From a virus (lineage: Duplodnaviria; Heunggongvirae; Uroviricota; Caudoviricetes), in the IMG/VR virus record IMGVR_UViG_2690316311_000003: DNA of 21,839 bases. One strand, given 5' to 3'. The notes beneath the pieces are model-generated. The model saw only the letters and a list, made by a program, of their open reading frames with translations, ran no database searches and was not told where the DNA came from. The position numbers and the translations under genes were made by a program. Shown here piece by piece: positions 250 through 8,672 of this stretch. How positions within the stretch are numbered: the first letter of the stretch is position 1; the number at the start of each line of letters is the position of its first letter.

Positions 250-882
250 ATGAGAACAAATACAACAAGAAAAGCGATGCCATACATTATCCCAGAAGCA
301 GATTTCGATAGAAAACTGAACATGTCTGAGAAGAACACTAGTCACACCGAAAGCTACTTAGCGAAAGGTGTGGTTGATTTCGTTCTTCCGGGATTCACAA
401 CACCTTATGGTTATCGCCTTGTAAAATCTTGTAATGGCGATCATTACAGAATGATTACTACCAGCGATACTCCAGAAACGGTGTATGCGGTTAAGTTAAT
501 CTTTCGGGAAGATATCGTCGAAGCCAAAAGAACATGTACGCAGATCATGGTATGGCGTACGCCTAATGTTATTCATGACCGTGCTGTTCATGGTTTGCCT
601 CAGATTTTTTTTCAGTTCTTCCTAGAGCAATATGCGATCGTTGTATCTGATGAGCAACAAACAATCGATGGGAGAAGATTCTGGGAAAGAATGATTTCTT
701 GGGCTATAAACACCCCGGGATATAATGTATACGTTTCAGATGGCTCTGAAGAAGATAGACCTCTTAGCTTCATGACATCATGGGATGATTTCTATAGCCA
801 GTGGGCTGATTTCTGTTGGGGCAGTGATAAAGATGTGCATACCCACAGACTACTGGTTATAAGCAAAGATAAACTGCATTAA
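250..882 (+). CDS. Hypothetical 210-aa cytoplasmic protein; AT-rich accessory (moron) gene of unknown function
   Basis: ATG start with strong SD, about 40% GC against about 52% in neighbouring phage genes, 10 of 14 Arg codons are AGA, own promoter-like element and terminator, opposite strand to the structural operon. No motif recognised. Confidence 0.8.
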   Translation: MRTNTTRKAMPYIIPEADFDRKLNMSEKNTSHTESYLAKGVVDFVLPGFTTPYGYRLVKSCNGDHYRMITTSDTPETVYAVKLIFREDIVEAKRTCTQIMVWRTPNVIHDRAVHGLPQIFFQFFLEQYAIVVSDEQQTIDGRRFWERMISWAINTPGYNVYVSDGSEEDRPLSFMTSWDDFYSQWADFCWGSDKDVHTHRLLVISKDKLH

Positions 883-885
883 TAG

Positions 886-908
886 AAGCCCGCAGCGCGG
901 GCTTTTTT
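886..908 (+). terminator. Rho-independent terminator
   Basis: Stem AGCCCGC (887-893) / GCGGGCT (897-903) with a 3-nt loop, then a T-run to 908, starting 4 nt after the stop at 880-882. Confidence 0.75.
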
Positions 909-980
909 GTGGACGAAACAAAAGTCAGTGCTACACTCATTGACGCCACATTGAGGTGGCTTATAGATGGAAATTTCACA

Positions 981-1142
981 ATGAAAAAAGCATTTGCTGC
1001 ACTGTTCGTTTTGTTGTCTCTGGTAGCTTCAACTCAGGCCTTTGCCGGTCGTTGTCAGCACGACAGCGATACTGCCGCTGACGGCTCCCGCTGCGGTGGG
1101 CGTTCTGCGGATTCCCGCCCGGGCGGCGGTGGCATTCGTTAA
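981..1142 (+). CDS. Small secreted peptide precursor (53 aa): Sec-type signal peptide, then a 31-aa Gly-rich mature peptide with two Cys
   Basis: MKK + hydrophobic core + AFA|G cleavage motif; mature GRCQHDSDTAADGSRCGGRSADSRPGGGGIR. The ORF track's GTG start at 909 would place the signal peptide internally, so ATG 981 is preferred. GC-rich, unlike the adjacent 210-aa gene. Confidence 0.55.
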   Translation: MKKAFAALFVLLSLVASTQAFAGRCQHDSDTAADGSRCGGRSADSRPGGGGIR

Positions 1143-1164
1143 AAACAAGGCCGCGAAAGCGGCC
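1141..1164 (-). terminator. Rho-independent terminator ending the minus-strand structural operon
   Basis: Hairpin GGCCGC-GAAA-GCGGCC (1149-1164); on the minus strand it is followed by TTGTTTTT. Plus-strand side is not T-rich, so it is mainly unidirectional. Confidence 0.65.
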
Positions 1165-1165
1165 T

Positions 1166-1177
1166 GTGACATGTCAC
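1166..1177. repeat. Perfect 12-bp palindrome GTGACATGTCAC (copy 1)
   Basis: Lies between the stop of the 46-aa ORF and the terminator hairpin. Identical copy at 20657-20668; one-mismatch copies at 18392-18403 and 15353-15364. Confidence 0.6.
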
Positions 1178-1184
1178 GCTCACG

Positions 1185-1325
1185 TTATGACAAGCCTATG
1201 TACCCTGCTACACCAGATAATATCAAAATAACTGCAACAGCAAATTCGCCATCGTCAATGATACATTTGCGGTTCATAACGCCAAGTGCAACAAGCGCAA
1301 ACACAACAAGAATAAAAGCAATCAT
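1185..1325 (-). CDS. Small hydrophobic membrane protein (46 aa, two predicted TM helices), not in the ORF track
   Basis: Hand translation: MIAFILVVFALVALGVMNRKCIIDDGEFAVAVILILSGVAGYIGLS*. SD AAGGA 6 nt upstream of ATG, starts 10 nt after the stop of the 824-aa gene, followed by the operon terminator. Confidence 0.5.
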   Translation of the reverse strand: MIAFILVVFALVALGVMNRKCIIDDGEFAVAVILILSGVAGYIGLS

Positions 1326-1334
1326 TTCTCATCC

Positions 1335-3809
1335 TTATTGCGGAGTGACATCCTGTGGTCGCCACCAGTATGTCTGGTTAAACTCTTTCTTCGAACGTTG
1401 CTCCATTTTACGCAAATAACCTGGTGAAAAATACTCCTGCATCTGGTTAAAGATCATGTGATCGAGAGCCGCCTTTAAGTACCAGAGATTCGCACCAGGC
1501 ATCAAACCTTTCCCCAGCTTCACCAGATCACCACCAGTCTGCTCACTCTTCCCTTCCACAGCATTTAACGGTATGCCCTGAGCAATCTTCACTACGTCAT
1601 CAACCAGACCAGCTACCGGGCCAAGCATCGACGCCAGCGCGCCGCTTCCGTACCTAGTGTGATCTGACAATAAAAAGTCACCGTAAAGGCCAAGACCACC
1701 ACCTTTCAGTAGAGCACCAAGCCAGAATTTTGCGGCATCTTCTCCTGTCATCTCTCGAGGATTACGACCAGACGCAAGGTCGTTAAGTTGCTGCGACAAA
1801 GCGCCAAGAATGGTCGTACTGGCAATAAACGTCGCAATATATGCCGCACGCCCACCAGCAGACGGCATACCCATAGCGCGTGACCAGTGACGCATAACAA
1901 CCGAGATAGGGAACGATTTAAACAGGAAAACACTTCTCGTTAATTCACCTTTCCATGTTCCACGCTGAATACCAGAACCGGTTATCAGTTGCTCACGTGC
2001 TCCCGGTGTAATAACAGCCATATCAACTTCTTCAGTTACGGCACCGAGCAGTTTACGCATTGCCTCAAATTTCACGCGTTCAGGCTCACCAAGATGTTTA
2101 ACTGCTGAATCAGGGATACGCATAATGCTTTCCGGTGTCAGCATCGTATTATTACCGTTCCCCCAGTCCTCCTGTTGCGCCAGCTTCCATACGCTCCAGT
2201 CTGTGTCAGTAATCCCTTTACTTTTCAGGATACGAAAATCAGAGTCATCGAGGCTACGAAGGTCTGGTGTCCGTGACACTACTTCTCCCAGGCTTCCCAT
2301 CATGGTTACGCCATAGGCGCGCTTGTGCGCATCTGACCATGCTGTAAGCCCACTGGCACGCATTACCGCCGTTGCCGCCCAACGAGACACAGACGGCCCC
2401 ATATTATCCATCGCCCAGCGGTTAACGCTGCCAAGTAGAGATTCCATCGCCAGGCCAGCGCGGCGCGCCCGCGCAAGCTCAGTACGGTTCGTTGGGTCCA
2501 TAGCTTCAAGCTGGTTGCGAAATAACTGGTTCATTGGAAGGTTGGTAACCTTCGCAGACAGATACATGGTTCCAAGATCAGAGAACGATGACAGCAACGC
2601 GGATCCGAGTCTGCTGGCAACCAGCCAGTTGCGGATATTGTCAGACCATCGCGCGATGTGCGGATTCGCTACAGGCTGTGTTTTTCCGGAAATAAAGTTG
2701 TACAAGTTCTCTGTTTTGTTCGCCAGACGCTCGACGCTACCGGTTTTACTCGGGTTAGCTGTTGCCGTTTCTGCCTTAACCTGATCAAGAAGAGAGCGGA
2801 AAACATGATCGGGGTTTGGGCCATATGTTTCCACCAGCGCAATATCTTTACTGATACCTTCCAGGTGACCGACCATGATTTCCCATAGAGAGCGATCGCC
2901 ATAAAGTTGCTGATATTGCAGATAGGAATCTGCATCTTTGAAATGTATCTGTCGTGATGCATTACCACGGTTAGCACGTACGCCGGAAATTCGCATTCCG
3001 GTATCAGTAAGCTTATTCAGCCCACCAGTAGCGATCGTGTTATAAGCCTCTCCAAGAAATGCAGACAACTCGGCATCGTTCATCAGTTGTCCATCGGCTC
3101 GGGTATAATATTTGCGATCCAGCTTACCTATAACATCGCTAACCCATTTATCTTTTGATACCGCCCCAACCTTTTCCATAGAATGATGTTGAGGGATCCC
3201 CCAGTTTTCGAGATAGCCAATGTCCCCACCAGCATCATTAAACCGGCGGCGCAGTAGATCTGTCACTTCTCTCCACGCCTTAGCACCTTTTCTTGCTTTA
3301 GCATTGCCAGTATTTTGCCCTCGCATTTCATATACCAGGTCACGCACGCCCGCTTCATCTTCAAACAGGCCAAAAAAGCGAGGATCAACTGCTTCAAATG
3401 CCTCCTGCAATTGACTCAATGCATAATCACGAGTGGCTTTTGTTCTGGATTCAACAGAGAGGAAATTCGATTTACCGTCTGCATTAAAAGCAATAGTACG
3501 GTTAAGAGCGCCAAGTTTCCCATCAGCCCCTTGATAGCTATTGATAAATTTATCCAATCTCTGACGTGCGGCTATAGTGAGGGCCACACGACGTTTCTTT
3601 AATGCCGCTTCTCGCTGTAATTCTTCAGATGCCAATTGTGCTGCACGATACAACCGTTCTGATTCGGAAAGTTGTCGCCACGACATCGGGTCATCACGAG
3701 CAATGGAGCGCATATTTCGATAAATGCGGTCTTCAATGTTCTGTATTTCTCGCGCCGTTAACGTGCGCTGCGCCGCCTGCTGGACCGCTTGTATACATTC
3801 CTGTCTCAT
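1335..3809 (-). CDS. Internal virion / ejection protein (824 aa); C-terminal hydrophobic region resembles the C-terminus of T7 gp16
   Basis: Long ORF with SD GAGAGG; helical, FKSF-containing hydrophobic C-terminal segments; last large gene of the structural operon. Confidence 0.8.
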   Translation of the reverse strand: MRQECIQAVQQAAQRTLTAREIQNIEDRIYRNMRSIARDDPMSWRQLSESERLYRAAQLASEELQREAALKKRRVALTIAARQRLDKFINSYQGADGKLGALNRTIAFNADGKSNFLSVESRTKATRDYALSQLQEAFEAVDPRFFGLFEDEAGVRDLVYEMRGQNTGNAKARKGAKAWREVTDLLRRRFNDAGGDIGYLENWGIPQHHSMEKVGAVSKDKWVSDVIGKLDRKYYTRADGQLMNDAELSAFLGEAYNTIATGGLNKLTDTGMRISGVRANRGNASRQIHFKDADSYLQYQQLYGDRSLWEIMVGHLEGISKDIALVETYGPNPDHVFRSLLDQVKAETATANPSKTGSVERLANKTENLYNFISGKTQPVANPHIARWSDNIRNWLVASRLGSALLSSFSDLGTMYLSAKVTNLPMNQLFRNQLEAMDPTNRTELARARRAGLAMESLLGSVNRWAMDNMGPSVSRWAATAVMRASGLTAWSDAHKRAYGVTMMGSLGEVVSRTPDLRSLDDSDFRILKSKGITDTDWSVWKLAQQEDWGNGNNTMLTPESIMRIPDSAVKHLGEPERVKFEAMRKLLGAVTEEVDMAVITPGAREQLITGSGIQRGTWKGELTRSVFLFKSFPISVVMRHWSRAMGMPSAGGRAAYIATFIASTTILGALSQQLNDLASGRNPREMTGEDAAKFWLGALLKGGGLGLYGDFLLSDHTRYGSGALASMLGPVAGLVDDVVKIAQGIPLNAVEGKSEQTGGDLVKLGKGLMPGANLWYLKAALDHMIFNQMQEYFSPGYLRKMEQRSKKEFNQTYWWRPQDVTPQ

Positions 3810-3814
3810 TTAAT

Positions 3815-5617
3815 TTAACCTCTCAAGAAACACGCCACAGCAACATCAAACAGGCTGGAATCCTGTATTGCCTGCTCACTTTCCCTGTTCGCTTCATCCA
3901 GTACTTCACGCGCACTGCGCGATTGTGGATTACCATCATCATCCAGCACGGTGATTATCATGTCCGGAGATTCAAGCAGCGAGTCTTCAGCTATACGCAG
4001 ATCAATATCTCCTGCCGGATCTGCCATCATTTTTTGTTCTGTCTGTTGCAATATCTTACCGGGCTCAAAAGGAGCTACTTCGTCTGGCGTCCTGACCTCT
4101 GCTGTTTTATAGAATGAAACAGCCTGAGCATTAAGTTCACTTTCTGCCTGCTGTCTCCGAGCCAGTTCTGCTCGAGCTTCAAAAAACTGACCGCCAGGCT
4201 CATGCGGTGCCAACGCGTTACGAGAAAATTCCAGGCGTTCTTGTGCCTGCCGGATTCGTTGGTCAATATCGCGAAGTCTGGCCTGTTTATCTGATCGAGC
4301 ACGAGACAAAGCTTTACCGCTACCGGTTGGCTCTTCTGCAAGAATTTGTGCACGCTGTTCAGTGAGATTTTCAATAATTCGTTGGCTATTAGCGATTTCA
4401 GACTGGTAAACCTGTCTATCTCCACGCGGCAAAAGCTGCGCGGCCTGTTCTTCAAGCAACCGATTTTCTATAGCGCGCGCCGTTACTCCATCATCTACAG
4501 ATGACAGAGCCTCATTAACTGCCTGAGACAGCAGACTCTTGCGCCCAGGAATTTCACTGAAAGATGCAGACTCAACAATGCTGGCAACGTCTACAGGTCT
4601 CCCCTGGCTAACATCAGACATAGCTTTTCGCAGAGCCTGAATGTGAGAATTGCGCGAAAGCACGTTGATCGGCACGCCGGGAGAAATATCAATTTCAGCA
4701 TGATGAGCGGCATTCGCCGCCAGTGCCGCATCGACATCAACTGGTGAAAAATTGGGGGTGCTTGTAGCCTCACCGCGAGAGTTAATAAATCTGCCGACAC
4801 CACCAAACGCCACCCCAAGAACAGCATCAATAGCGATTGCCTGTCGATCCAACACATCATACTGGTTAGCCATTTCGCTATAGCCACCATCACGAAGCGT
4901 TTTTGCAGTAAGCCCACGCTGTGCCATACCGAACGCAATATTTGTACCTGCGGCATAGGCAATATCTGGCGTTGCACGTACTGCTGTTGCTGCGGCGCGT
5001 CGCACTGAACTTTCACCCGTCCGCGCAAGCTGAGCCGCCACACCTTCCGCCAGCGCACCACCAGCACGTAACCCGAGGCTCATAGGGATCAGTGTTCCGG
5101 CACCAGCAGTAATACCCTGCACTAATCCCGCTTCCTGCGCCGTCCTGAAATCAACACCCTGTGCTGTCAGCCGTTCAAACTCAGAAAAACCCTGTAGCGA
5201 AGTTACCGCCGCAGCACCTCCGACCGGACCACCGAGCGTTGTACCGATAACAGCCTGCCCGCCCATATCGAACAACCCATAAAGAACCTGCCCGGCGGTT
5301 CCGGTTGTCGCGGCATCAGGCGTCAGCCGCTTAACCTGCTGCTCTGCTAGTTTTCTCTGCTCGGCAATGTATGAAACTGAAGTGTCATTGAGCGAGGTGT
5401 TTTCGTTAACAAACTGAGCAATCGGGGATACGATTTTATCCATCCCTGCCCAGAGCAACTGATCTGGCTTTGCCACCAGCCCGGAGTACAAACCAGACAA
5501 TGCCGCTCCTACAGCATTGTCGAAAAAACCAACATCGCTGTTAAAGCCAACTGGATTTGATGCTGCTTCGTCAAGCTGCTGATTCTGGTTTACTGGATTA
5601 AGGCCAAAGTAACTCAT
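3815..5617 (-). CDS. Internal virion protein (600 aa), Gly/Ala-rich central region
   Basis: ATGA start/stop overlap with the upstream gene; Gly/Ala-rich segments typical of podovirus core proteins. Confidence 0.8.
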   Translation of the reverse strand: MSYFGLNPVNQNQQLDEAASNPVGFNSDVGFFDNAVGAALSGLYSGLVAKPDQLLWAGMDKIVSPIAQFVNENTSLNDTSVSYIAEQRKLAEQQVKRLTPDAATTGTAGQVLYGLFDMGGQAVIGTTLGGPVGGAAAVTSLQGFSEFERLTAQGVDFRTAQEAGLVQGITAGAGTLIPMSLGLRAGGALAEGVAAQLARTGESSVRRAAATAVRATPDIAYAAGTNIAFGMAQRGLTAKTLRDGGYSEMANQYDVLDRQAIAIDAVLGVAFGGVGRFINSRGEATSTPNFSPVDVDAALAANAAHHAEIDISPGVPINVLSRNSHIQALRKAMSDVSQGRPVDVASIVESASFSEIPGRKSLLSQAVNEALSSVDDGVTARAIENRLLEEQAAQLLPRGDRQVYQSEIANSQRIIENLTEQRAQILAEEPTGSGKALSRARSDKQARLRDIDQRIRQAQERLEFSRNALAPHEPGGQFFEARAELARRQQAESELNAQAVSFYKTAEVRTPDEVAPFEPGKILQQTEQKMMADPAGDIDLRIAEDSLLESPDMIITVLDDDGNPQSRSAREVLDEANRESEQAIQDSSLFDVAVACFLRG

Positions 5618-8127
5618 TGCGGAATATCTCCGGAGAATCTCTGACGCTTCTGTGTCAGATCAAGAACAACGGGAGAACCATCATCTTTTAGCAGATAACC
5701 AGTACCAAGTTTCACCAGGTACTGACTATCGCCGTAACTTTGCAAACCATACTGACCAGGCGGTGTTTTTATCCCTGTGCCAACAACTTGTTCATTCCAA
5801 GCCTGATTAACCTGCTTATCGAATTGCTCTGCAGACATTCCCCACGGCAAAAGAACATTCCCCATTCCGTTATAGTCATGCACGCCACCTGTAGCTACGT
5901 TAACAGCCTGTTTCCAGATATCATTGTCAATTTCGCCTGATACCACGCCTTTTTTCGCCATCACACCAGCGTAATAGTCCTTTGCGATCTCGTATGCCAT
6001 TGATGCCCCCTGAGCATCACCAGCAAATGCATCCTTCACCATGTCAGAAAACTCAAGGCGAAGATCAGCATCTTTAGGCATCGGAATACCTTTCGCGTCA
6101 TCAGTACCTTTACGAGCCGCCGCGCCAGCAAGAATTGTCTGCGCAGCGGTTTCTGGAGACACGGAAACATCCGGATTAAACCAGTTTTTTTCTGCCAAAA
6201 TACCACCTGGCTTATCCATCAGTATCCCGGCAACGGCAGCAGATGGAGCGTTGGCACTGATCTGCTGTAGTGCTGACATATACACCTGCCCACCACCAGT
6301 GCTCTGCCTGATGGTATCGAGATATGCTGCCTGTTGGGAAACGGGCGCATCACGAAAGAAAACACCGATCTGATTGGCCTCGTCTTTGGAAAAGAACGTC
6401 AGTGGAGTGCCATATGACTTAGCAAGGTCACTGACCTGAGCAGCACGCAAGGCAACGCTCTGTCCAAAGTTATCCTTATTGCTCATGTCGATAGGCTTTG
6501 CCTGTCCGGCGGCAAGAGAGAACTGTACAGGATCAGCCTGTCGCTGCTTTATCACCTGACTTGCAGCCGACACAACGTTGTCATAAAGAGCGGCTCGTGC
6601 CGCATAACCCTCCCCTGTCTCACCAGTATCCGGGCGTAATTGCTCAACATATGCTGTAATGCTGCTTGTCGGCATGTTGCGGAAAGAGCCTATATACTGT
6701 CCGGCGATTTGCGTATTTCTGAACTCGGTATATCGCAGGTTTCCTTCTCTTACTCCATAAGCTGCAATAAAATCAGCCTCACCAGGTGGGTTAGGAAATT
6801 CAACGCCACGCATATACGCAGCTGTCGCATCGCGAACCTGGCTGTCAATCATCGTTTTATATTCAGCCTGCTGCTGCCGACGCAGTTGATCCGCCTGTCG
6901 CATAAAACTTGCCTGCGCCTCAGGAGATGCCGCATCGAATGCTGCATTACCGGTATAGCGTTTGGTGTTGGTTGGAATTGTTGATAAACCAAGTGCTGCA
7001 CTGACACCAGCAGTTAACTGCTGATCACTGTATGGCTGGCTACCGTTCTCATGATGGATAATGGCTGCACAAAGCGCCTTCAGGGTATCAGGATTAGATG
7101 CATCGAGAGGCTCATCAGCAGAAACGCCAAGTTGTTCGCACACTGCTTTGATATACGACATAGTGTCATTTTTATCAGCAGGCGGTGCCCAGCGATTAAT
7201 TATCTCGCTGACGGTATCAATACCCTGCCTCTGATACGACATCAGGTTCCGCCCTAATGCACGAATCCCGTGTTCAGGTGTTTCGAATTTAGCAAATCGA
7301 CCATCATCACCGGTCTGGCCTACCCACGGATTAGTTTTGCTGTATTCGAGATTTCCTGGGTTATTGTTGCGTATGCCACGGGCACGCTCGGAAGAGTCAC
7401 TATCTGCTACAGCACGGCGAGCTCCAGCAGCAGTATCACTTAACTCGCCATTACTTTGGATGAATGCGGTCGCATTGTTTGCCGACCACTGGGACAATGC
7501 AGCATCAGCAACCTTCTCTTTAAACTCGATTTTCTTGGCATGGATTTGCTCGTTGCTCCAGCCATGTGCAACACCGTACTCCTCAATTTGCTGGAAAGTT
7601 TGCTTGTTAGCCAATACGTATGCGGCGTTGTCGCCATACAATGCTGCGGCATTTTTACCATTGTTCAGCAGTGTCGCCTGAAACTGGCCTTCTTCGTAGG
7701 CATTAATTTGCCCTATCTCGTGTCGCCCGGCCTGCGTAGTGAACTGAATGCGCTGCTGCTGCGCCTGCTGCATGAAAGCATTACGAGCCTGTTCATCCGG
7801 CAGCGACATAGCCAGTTGTTCGACCTGAGCATCAAACTGCTGCGTATACTCATGGCCTTTTCCAATAGCATTTTTCCCTTTCAGGTTAAGCAATCCTGTT
7901 TCAGGATTATTCAGCAGATCGCTGCTTATCTGACTGAGGTTAAGAGATGCCTCCTGAGCCAGAGCGATATTGGCACGCTGTTTTGCCTGCCCCAAAACAT
8001 CAATTGCCTCTGTCCCTGCCCGAACAAAAGCATCACCAATACCTTGCTGAGAAAACGTCTGCAAGCCTGCTGACTGAACTCCACGACTCTCAACCTGACG
8101 TCCGGATACTGTTGGTACGACTGGCAT
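5614..8127 (-). CDS. Internal virion protein (838 aa), T7 gp15/gp16-like by position
   Basis: ORF-track start at 8202 overlaps the upstream gene by 75 nt; ATG at 8127 has SD GGAGGA and a TAATG overlap with the upstream stop. Contains the motif RGIRNNNPGNLEY of unknown significance. Confidence 0.8.
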   Translation of the reverse strand: MPVVPTVSGRQVESRGVQSAGLQTFSQQGIGDAFVRAGTEAIDVLGQAKQRANIALAQEASLNLSQISSDLLNNPETGLLNLKGKNAIGKGHEYTQQFDAQVEQLAMSLPDEQARNAFMQQAQQQRIQFTTQAGRHEIGQINAYEEGQFQATLLNNGKNAAALYGDNAAYVLANKQTFQQIEEYGVAHGWSNEQIHAKKIEFKEKVADAALSQWSANNATAFIQSNGELSDTAAGARRAVADSDSSERARGIRNNNPGNLEYSKTNPWVGQTGDDGRFAKFETPEHGIRALGRNLMSYQRQGIDTVSEIINRWAPPADKNDTMSYIKAVCEQLGVSADEPLDASNPDTLKALCAAIIHHENGSQPYSDQQLTAGVSAALGLSTIPTNTKRYTGNAAFDAASPEAQASFMRQADQLRRQQQAEYKTMIDSQVRDATAAYMRGVEFPNPPGEADFIAAYGVREGNLRYTEFRNTQIAGQYIGSFRNMPTSSITAYVEQLRPDTGETGEGYAARAALYDNVVSAASQVIKQRQADPVQFSLAAGQAKPIDMSNKDNFGQSVALRAAQVSDLAKSYGTPLTFFSKDEANQIGVFFRDAPVSQQAAYLDTIRQSTGGGQVYMSALQQISANAPSAAVAGILMDKPGGILAEKNWFNPDVSVSPETAAQTILAGAAARKGTDDAKGIPMPKDADLRLEFSDMVKDAFAGDAQGASMAYEIAKDYYAGVMAKKGVVSGEIDNDIWKQAVNVATGGVHDYNGMGNVLLPWGMSAEQFDKQVNQAWNEQVVGTGIKTPPGQYGLQSYGDSQYLVKLGTGYLLKDDGSPVVLDLTQKRQRFSGDIPQ

Positions 8128-8672
8128 TATAATCCTCCGGGTAATCTGGTTCCTGCTGCTGCCCCGATTGGCGCAGGAGTGCTTTGAGTAAACGGACTCC
8201 ACGTCCCACCAAACATCTGGTACGCACCGTATGCCTTCAGAGGCGCAGTGAGCAATGTTGTTGCTGCTCCCACATTCCCCTGTTTACGGGCTGAACTGGC
8301 TTCTGCTTTATAGTTGGCAGCCTGAACCTGATAACCGTAAGCCTCGCGTTGCGCGTTATTCACCGTCGTCAGCGAATCAAGAGCGCCAAACTGGGCAGTG
8401 TCGCCAAATATATCCAGCGCGTTACCTGTAGATAAATCAGCGCCGGTAGCCCCCATTGTCGCCGCCTGTGTACCAAGCCGCTGTCGGGTCTCTCTGCGTC
8501 GTTGCTCAGCTTCAGCGTTACCTCTGTTTATTGCATCATTTGCCTGAGCTGTGGCTATATCTGCGTTCGCTTCTGCAACCTTCGAGGCATACTTTCCCTG
8601 TTGGTACTGGGTGTATGCCTGAATGCCACTCATGGCGAGCATTGCGCCACCAGCAATAACCGGATCGCACAT
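8127..8672 (-). CDS. Internal virion protein (181 aa), T7 gp14-like by size and position
   Basis: TAATG coupling at both ends; Ala/Gln-rich low-complexity protein. Confidence 0.75.
   Translation of the reverse strand: MCDPVIAGGAMLAMSGIQAYTQYQQGKYASKVAEANADIATAQANDAINRGNAEAEQRRRETRQRLGTQAATMGATGADLSTGNALDIFGDTAQFGALDSLTTVNNAQREAYGYQVQAANYKAEASSARKQGNVGAATTLLTAPLKAYGAYQMFGGTWSPFTQSTPAPIGAAAGTRLPGGL

Follow-up and report, generated by a model that had tools for sequence, protein, structure and literature searches.

Among the described systems closest to the gene considered here are the classical phage morons, such as bor and lom of lambda and gp15 of HK97 (reviewed by Taylor et al. 2019, as cited in PMC7724020). 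MgrB, a 47-aa enterobacterial peptide that inhibits PhoQ, keeps its transmembrane anchor and carries two functionally conserved periplasmic cysteines, and the Excalibur family (PF05901), with the signature D-x-D-x-D-G-x-x-C-E, binds Ca2+ extracellularly. In the HXS anti-phage system, HxsA is a signal-peptide-bearing periplasmic effector directed against phage entry (PMC13128918). Here we describe a 53-codon open reading frame (ORF) at positions 981-1142 of IMG/VR record IMGVR_UViG_2690316311_000003, a 21,839-nt stretch of DNA (the window) that represents an epsilon15/phiV10-like (Uetakevirus) prophage of Escherichia coli.

By its organisation the gene is an ordinary phage moron, and nothing about it is surprising in kind. 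It shares with the classical morons its small size, its dispensability, a place between essential modules, flanking terminators, a promoter-like element of its own, patchy presence among close relatives and a product predicted to reach the envelope. It differs from them in having no sequence relation to any of these genes, in its far smaller product (31 aa when mature), and in occurring also on plasmids and at non-phage chromosomal sites of distant phyla. On balance, and with some reserve, we favour the view that the gene is an autonomous moron whose product, a periplasmic mini-protein, is cleaved, closed by a disulfide loop and directed at a conserved component of the envelope. What this target is and what the carrier gains, both drawn from the distribution of the family, are the weakest steps of this explanation.

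Reading frame, presequence and mature peptide

The ORF runs on the plus strand from ATG 981-983 to TAA 1140-1142, and its product is MKKAFAALFVLLSLVASTQAFA followed by GRCQHDSDTAADGSRCGGRSADSRPGGGGIR. An earlier reading of the window from its letters alone (the sequence-only reading) had described a 22-aa signal peptide ending in AFA before Gly, a 31-aa mature part, C-x12-C spacing and a GGGG tail, and this description is exact.

981..1046, plus strand: predicted signal peptide of 22 codons, MKKAFAALFVLLSLVASTQAFA, recognised by the -3/-1 rule, Gly at +1 and n-region charge in 83 homologues
1047..1142, plus strand: mature 31-aa peptide GRCQHDSDTAADGSRCGGRSADSRPGGGGIR and stop codon, recognised by its dN/dS of 0.06 and its invariant residues
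1053..1055 and 1092..1094, plus strand: codons of Cys25 and Cys38, spaced C-x12-C

The first 3.5 kb of the window hold 46 ORFs of at least 25 aa, so an ORF of such size is no evidence by itself. The above-chance support for 981-1142 lies in its conservation, which takes the form of identical copies in phages, low nonsynonymous relative to synonymous divergence, invariant cysteines and homologous clusters. The identical peptide is encoded by phages phiv142-3 (Orf11), TL-2011b (gp43), HEMP4 and EC.W1-9, and orthologues are found in Klebsiella, Cronobacter, Enterobacter, Franconibacter, Kluyvera, Buttiauxella, Pantoea, Rahnella, Rouxiella, Pectobacterium, Dickeya, Salmonella and Tolumonas. A codon alignment of 18 enterobacterial orthologues gives, between genera, a proportion of synonymous differences (pS) of 0.6-0.9 in the mature part versus 0.05-0.13 for nonsynonymous differences (pN). 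Synonymous sites are nearly saturated, and the pooled ratio of nonsynonymous to synonymous substitution rates (dN/dS) comes to 0.06 in the mature part and 0.16 in the presequence. Since change in the 981 frame is mostly synonymous, the frame is fixed at 981 and overlapping ORFs on both strands are excluded. The ORF is a real protein gene under strong purifying selection.

An alternative would be that the conservation of 981-1142 has a different cause, namely an RNA, the terminator region that serves the opposite operon, or an overlapping ORF (GTG 909, 77 aa; TTG 1042, 125 aa; or 1029-1172 on the minus strand). This could appeal to PHROG 3117, which models the 77-aa form, to gene callers that likewise start upstream (in P0004, P0009 and P0021), and to the stop codon of the peptide, which abuts the shared terminator. 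It is already disfavoured and we find it scarcely credible: between-genus substitutions are overwhelmingly synonymous in the 981 frame, a scan of positions 700-1400 against Rfam returned only chance-level matches below threshold, and a 5-codon upstream ORF (uORF) at 967-984 is missing from most orthologues. The 77-aa form from GTG 909 was rejected, as the upstream extension in Klebsiella contains an in-frame stop (ATG GAT GAA ATC TAA).

The presequence has K2 and K3 in its n-region, a hydrophobic core at residues 4-17, A20 at -3, A22 at -1 and Gly at +1; it combines the charged n-region, hydrophobic h-region and small residues at -3 and -1 by which sequence rules recognise a Sec-exported substrate of signal peptidase I. 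Across the 83 aligned homologues, position -3 is A, S or V and position +1 is G without exception, and position -1 is A in 82. The family presequence has a median length of 22 aa and an N-terminal net charge of +2, and it drifts in sequence with its hydrophobicity retained. No lipobox of the form [LVI][ASTVI][GAS]C with Cys at +1 is present in the window, which reads Q-A-F-A-G-R-C. The cysteine is instead the third residue past the predicted cleavage site, following a G-x-C rule in the family; a few distant members read A-A-C. Because the -3/-1 rule and the hydrophobicity are kept in homologues and there is no lipobox, Sec export followed by signal peptidase I cleavage after AFA22 appears very likely. 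The database labels 'transmembrane anchored' and 'membrane associated' are predictions against which the conserved cleavage site speaks, and on this reading the former is probably wrong.

Both cysteines are kept in all 83 homologues; their loss in relatives had been named by the sequence-only reading as grounds for giving up the peptide, and no such loss is seen. In total, C25, A32, G35, S36, C38, G39, R41, R46, G48 and G49 are invariant, and the family core reads G-x-C-x5-D-x-A-x-D-G-S-R-C-G-x-R-[SA]-[AS]-x-x-R-P-G-G, usually followed by one residue and the stop codon. The window sequence carries this core of two cysteines with DGS-x-CG-x-R ... R-x-GG. Cys25 and Cys38 are expected to form a periplasmic disulfide closing a 12-residue loop, so that the predicted product is a free 31-aa mini-protein, for which we compute an oxidised mass of 3058 Da, a pI of 8.1 and a net charge of about +1. 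An AlphaFold2 model has a mean predicted local distance difference test score (pLDDT) of 77, with values of 76-84 over residues 21-50.

GC content is 0.58 in the ORF and 0.70 in its mature part versus 0.41 in the upstream 210-aa gene, which is the contrast with an AT-rich neighbour that had been pointed out before. The separate acquisition deduced from it holds in so far as the gene and this neighbour have separate histories; GC-richness, however, is weak evidence of foreign origin, because codon positions 1 and 2 carry most of it (0.74 and 0.77; Gly, Arg, Ala and Asp) and GC content at the third position (GC3) is only 0.58.

The family is already catalogued in PHROG 14503 and RefSeq, without an assigned function. 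The window peptide matches phrog_14503 (E 2.3e-40, positions 1-53 of 53; labelled 'membrane associated protein', moron category) and phrog_3117 (E 4e-36), PHROG 27544 is a distant family relation, and RefSeq uses the names 'hypothetical protein' (WP_000708858.1) and 'transmembrane anchored protein' (for example TL-2011b gp43, YP_007001994.1). PHROG 14503/3117 and the RefSeq 'transmembrane anchored protein' are the same family as the window peptide, with a full-length hidden Markov model (HMM) match and no sequence difference. There are 57 close homologues; a profile search of 1.8 billion cluster representatives recovered 385 relatives (representatives at 50% identity) and a second profile search 1132 homologous clusters at 90% identity, and no functional name occurs among these relatives and clusters. 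Pfam gave no match for the peptide or for any of the 83 homologues at E up to 10, and NCBIfam none for the peptide or for the fusion relatives. Literature on the family name, the motif and the carrier phages yielded no functional study of the peptide. What is absent from the databases and the searched literature is the breadth of the family, its status as a mini-domain outside Pfam, its place as the fixed centre of a swap region, and its conserved promoter and stem-loop.

Prophage setting and expression signals

The minus strand of the window carries terminase, portal/adaptor, major head, tail and internal-virion/ejection genes, the ejection proteins being encoded at 1335-3809, 3815-5617 and 5614-8202. 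The peptide gene closes a short plus-strand unit, divergent from the tail-fibre gene, in which a small hypothetical gene is followed by a BRO-N antirepressor, then by variable cargo and finally by the peptide. This unit converges on the end of the virion operon, where a gp17-like pilot/structural protein is preceded by a small membrane protein. This position is syntenic in Uetakevirus-like phages of E. coli, Klebsiella, Cronobacter and Alcaligenes, the Alcaligenes phage Piluca having a 56%-identical homologue in the equivalent slot. As is typical of a phage moron, the gene can be missing: phiV10, PAS61 and the Salmonella SPN1S group align on both flanks and lack the ORF, and its absence from phiV10 and the SPN1S group indicates that the phage can do without it.

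In 80 IMG/VR contigs that encode the identical peptide, at least 10 different sequences lie upstream of the gene and at least 8 downstream, and this variety of flanks argues that the peptide cassette is the constant part and its neighbours are swapped cargo. The separate acquisition suggested by the sequence-only reading is to be corrected accordingly, with the small ORF as the constant resident and the neighbours exchanged. The cassette contains or adjoins these elements:

885..908, plus strand: intrinsic terminator of the upstream cargo gene and insulator of the cassette, with stem 885-893/897-905 and a T-tract to 908
910..937, plus strand: putative sigma-70 promoter, with -35-like TGGACG at 910-915, a 16-nt spacer, TG at 929-930 and -10 TACACT at 932-937
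945..960, plus strand: 5' stem-loop GCCAC-AUUGAG-GUGGC (-8.4 kcal/mol, z -3.2, covariation)
961..980, plus strand: single-stranded leader with a weak Shine-Dalgarno-like GGA at 969-971, 9 nt before the ATG
1148..1165, both strands: GC-rich hairpin common to the converging units, the intrinsic terminator of the minus-strand virion operon

A terminator had been placed at 886-908, and a hairpin with T-tract is indeed found at 885-908 (-14.9 kcal/mol, z -3.0). It precedes the cassette behind different cargo in phiv142-3, TL-2011b and EC.W1-9, and terminator-like hairpins do so in Klebsiella, Rahnella and Rouxiella loci too. In an alignment (A6) of 18 orthologous upstream regions from at least 12 genera, the -10 element has the form TAnnnT, T1 and A2 being invariant and T6 nearly so. 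Near the expected transcription start, 6-8 nt past this -10, 15 of the 18 orthologues have a GC-rich hairpin of 4-7 bp whose stems differ in sequence (GCCAC/GTGGC, GCCGTC/GATGGC, GCCGC/GCGGC, CACCAC/GTGGTT and TTGCC/GGCAA). The stem-loop covaries: shuffling lowers the share of paired cells in the alignment from 80% to 69%, none of 500 shuffles reaching the observed value, sliding the partner gives 25-59%, and each of the 6 pairs has changed on both sides. We infer that 945-960 forms the 5'-terminal stem-loop of a leader of about 36 nt, with a possible role in mRNA stabilisation or initiation control. In all orthologues a GG, AGG or GGA element lies 8-12 nt before the start codon.

The hairpin at 1148-1165 folds with -15.7 kcal/mol on the plus strand and -14.3 on the minus strand (z -4.8 and -4.0). 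Its T-tract is on the minus strand, on which a terminator scan detects it; for the peptide mRNA it is a plus-strand 3' hairpin without a U-tract. It is kept in E. coli, Klebsiella, Kluyvera and Buttiauxella, and also in phiV10 in the absence of the ORF. As a moron transcription unit, the cassette has flanking hairpins and a conserved -10 with stem-loop, together with a weak -35 and this 3' hairpin lacking a U-tract. The suggestion that the gene may be expressed by read-through of the upstream terminator is unnecessary, because the cassette is bracketed by hairpins and the conserved -10 at 932-937 would provide a leader of its own with a 5' stem-loop. An independently expressed accessory gene is likely.

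Two other candidate elements were set aside. The hexamers TTGACG (940-945) and TATAGA (962-967), 16 nt apart, had been proposed as the only promoter-like element; they are in the sequence as described but are not conserved, Klebsiella having ATGAAG ... TACACA, and TATAGA lacks the T at position 6 of a -10, so that they were rejected as a conserved promoter. The uORF at 967-984, which overlaps the ATG as ATGA and has GAGGTGG as a Shine-Dalgarno sequence, was considered for translational coupling and rejected, since it is missing from most orthologues and its GAGGTGG forms the 3' arm of the stem-loop that is conserved.

Distribution and candidate functions

At least 6 prophage layouts carry the peptide gene. 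Typical moron sites that it takes in other Enterobacterales lie after Rz and before the small terminase gene (terS), between Q and the lysis genes, or next to a tape-measure-like gene, a CI-like repressor or a MuF_C protein. Of 5426 complete E. coli genomes, 422-538 carry the gene, so that about 1 in 10 holds the cassette. The mobilisable ColE1-like Klebsiella pneumoniae plasmid NZ_CP138754.1 (L153; 3,360 bp) encodes a 72%-identical homologue at 2104-2265, its only annotated non-mobilisation gene; P0033 and P0036 have matching contigs of about 3 kb. Further carriers are IncF plasmids, Rahnella megaplasmids and a Shigella-like remnant, in which the gene adjoins ipaH. E. coli VL7S7 (L011) has at 3505-3645 an N-terminally shortened 46-aa copy, as in Shigella dysenteriae (P0016), located in a prophage remnant that is flanked by yfhH and a pinE pseudogene and lies beside the type III secretion system effector gene ipaH.

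In Alphaproteobacteria, Cyanobacteria, Vibrio, Bacteriovorax and a myxobacterial metagenome-assembled genome the gene stands isolated, with no neighbour that recurs and without phage enrichment, its neighbours being heterogeneous in the first two groups. Outside the Uetakevirus virion genes, the 57 genome loci have no conserved partner gene, and no conserved neighbours of the HXS type. The mature peptide is almost unchanged across Enterobacterales and still recognisable in Alphaproteobacteria and Cyanobacteria.

A module of about 27 residues from this peptide also occurs in larger proteins, at the N-terminus, internally or at the C-terminus, and occasionally twice. One layout consists of a signal peptide, the module, a proline-rich linker and unrelated C-terminal domains; in another the module stands ahead of a transmembrane helix and a cytoplasmic domain, and in a third it is C-terminal, behind a membrane anchor. 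These varied architectures suggest that the module behaves as an independent extracytoplasmic mini-domain, and it does not depend on its own N-terminal segment, which is lacking in some of them. In the set of 106 longer proteins with the module, SH3_3/SH3_4 (n=3) and PG_binding_1/2 (n=2) are the only Pfam domains that recur as partners. These domains bind peptidoglycan and are a weak pointer to the cell wall, or to an enzyme that works on it, as the target. A 4-Cys variant, CPCPY...NGSRCGGRSAYSRPGG...CY (Y-S-G-x-C-x-C-P-Y ... NGSRCGGRSAYSRPGG ... P-x-C-Y), is found in larger secreted proteins (P0125, P0139, P0153, P0180, P0196 and P0197), sometimes with SH3b or PG_binding_1, or repeated, and it likewise has no Pfam model.

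The sequence-only reading had named a periplasmic effector, an exclusion or immunity factor and a signalling peptide as candidate roles, and candidates they stay. In the explanation that we favour, the 53-aa precursor would leave the cytoplasm through Sec and be cleaved after AFA22 by signal peptidase I, and oxidation of Cys25 and Cys38 in the periplasm would yield the free 31-aa mini-protein. Judging by its distribution, the peptide would need neither a partner gene nor a modifying enzyme nor a dedicated transporter in order to work. Because it is conserved between phyla, we propose as its target an envelope component conserved in Gram-negative bacteria, perhaps the cell wall itself or one of the enzymes that act on it. 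The carrier cell, and hence the prophage or plasmid, may gain an envelope-level advantage, for example protection against incoming phages or lytic enzymes; such a benefit is suggested by the repeated capture of the gene by temperate phages and small plasmids. An envelope-protective function as such is nevertheless a tentative proposal that we would not yet call probable.

Several observations weigh against this explanation. The -35 is weak, and the promoter has 8 of 12 matches, which is under the generic scan threshold; the region upstream of the gene in the small-plasmid lineage differs from the prophage cassette. PADLOC matched no defence model to the peptide, its two neighbours or seven module-bearing relatives, and the peptide has no structural analogue in the PDB, either by sequence or by fold with the AlphaFold2 model as query. 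Peptidoglycan-domain partners are present in only 5 of the 106 longer proteins, and the inspected partner proteins (P0139, P0153, P0196 and P0197) belong to the more distant 4-Cys subfamily. In the only transcript study of a phage with the identical gene, orf11 was not among the serum-induced genes of phiv142-3 (PMC7724020).

A specific rival for a function is superinfection exclusion, in which the peptide, from the periplasm, would stop incoming phages from delivering their genomes, for instance through binding to ejection/pilot proteins or to their transglycosylase, a mode of action paralleled by the periplasmic HxsA or T4 Sp. The gene does occupy moron positions in many temperate phages, and in the Uetakevirus-like phages of Gamma- and Betaproteobacteria it always converges on the gp17-like pilot/ejection gene, but this adjacency may mean no more than that the space in which the two operons converge is permissive. 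HxsA has already been described as a periplasmic effector that stops phage DNA from entering (PMC13128918), and our peptide resembles it in carrying a signal peptide and in a proposed periplasmic action against phage entry. The likeness is an analogy only: HxS repeats, radical S-adenosylmethionine (rSAM) maturases and an above-cut-off match, by which an HXS system is recognised, are lacking, the HxsA3 model (NF038309) scoring 12.9 bits against a cut-off of 65. With no PADLOC match and no rSAM neighbours, a mature net charge of only about +1 (pI 8.1), and isolated chromosomal homologues outside any phage context in Alphaproteobacteria and Cyanobacteria, we regard exclusion of this kind as improbable.

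Two further rivals, both of which we rate lower still, take their lead from the form of the peptide. As a membrane-anchored small regulator in the style of MgrB on PhoQ, it would remain uncleaved and modulate a sensor or transporter through a two-Cys periplasmic tail. Its size, N-terminal hydrophobic segment and two periplasmic cysteines do resemble MgrB, and the RefSeq and PHROG names say membrane-anchored; yet the peptide has a signal-peptidase site, A-x-A before G, conserved in 83 of 83 homologues, a hydrophobic core of about 14 residues, and neither sequence similarity to MgrB nor a Pfam MgrB match. Moreover, the presequence evolves faster than the tail, the module occurs without that segment in other architectures, and a tail conserved between phyla is ill-suited to a lineage-specific sensor, whereas MgrB is tied to PhoQ. 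In the other rival, the peptide would be a minimal binder of metal or Ca2+, akin to the Excalibur/DxDxDG extracellular loops, to which it is comparable as a short secreted Cys-bracketed loop with D...DG..C spacing: D30-x-A-x-D34-G35-x-x-C38 has the spacing of signature positions 1, 5, 6 and 9, with the second Cys upstream, which we treat as a lead only. However, the loop is much shorter, positions 3 and 10 of the signature are invariant Ala and Gly (D-T-A-A-D-G-S-R-C-G in the window), D30 is Q in 23 of the 83 homologues, His27 is lost in many wider relatives, and the PF05901 HMM matches none of the 83 members at E up to 10. This reading, like the regulator, seems quite unlikely.

Beyond the autonomous moron that we favour lies a broader proposal, speculative at present, that the 27-residue core is an undescribed periplasmic mini-domain, universal in Gram-negatives, that binds a conserved cell-wall or envelope component, the free peptide, spread by phages and small plasmids, acting as a minimal single-gene envelope shield against lytic enzymes or incoming phages. 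That the peptide could be useful on its own is suggested by its 31-aa mature size, its lack of partner genes and its recurrence on phages and a 3.4-kb plasmid. Were the proposal true, the peptide would found a new class of defence or immunity factors and be by far the smallest of all that are known, and envelope protection or a block to phage entry would bear on phage therapy host range and on lysogenic conversion. If the peptide is not protective, the gene is an ordinary uncharacterised moron. In either case it is a tractable target, small enough for synthesis and for single-gene manipulation.

Neighbouring slots and partial copies

Immediately upstream of the cassette, the AT-rich 210-aa gene at 250-882 (plus strand; GC 0.41, GC3 0.38) matches phrog_1349 and has no Pfam, NCBIfam or PADLOC match. 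The slot between the BRO-N antirepressor and the peptide has at least 10 alternative occupants, this gene among them; a YafO toxin, DUF2335 and DUF4760 are others. On the other side, 1185-1325 (minus strand) encodes at the end of the virion operon a 46-aa two-helix membrane protein of phrog_7892 (= PhiV10p21). This slot is also variable, with at least 8 sequences that include 98-aa and 119-aa membrane proteins in relatives, and it may be a second accessory or exclusion slot.

The E. coli genomes H73-H77 match only the last ~39 nt of the ORF and the terminator hairpin (window 1104-1180), which suggests deletion variants with the junction within the gene. In phiv142-3, orf10 is reported to raise the serum resistance of the avian pathogenic E. 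coli (APEC) strain DE142, in a study in which the neighbouring orf11, the identical peptide gene, was not mutated (PMC7724020). In that phage (L002) orf10, at 3522-3680, lies out of frame inside a longer ORF at 3395-3832, which fills the cargo slot and ends at the terminator just ahead of the peptide cassette; the serum-resistance phenotype published for orf10 may belong to this longer ORF.

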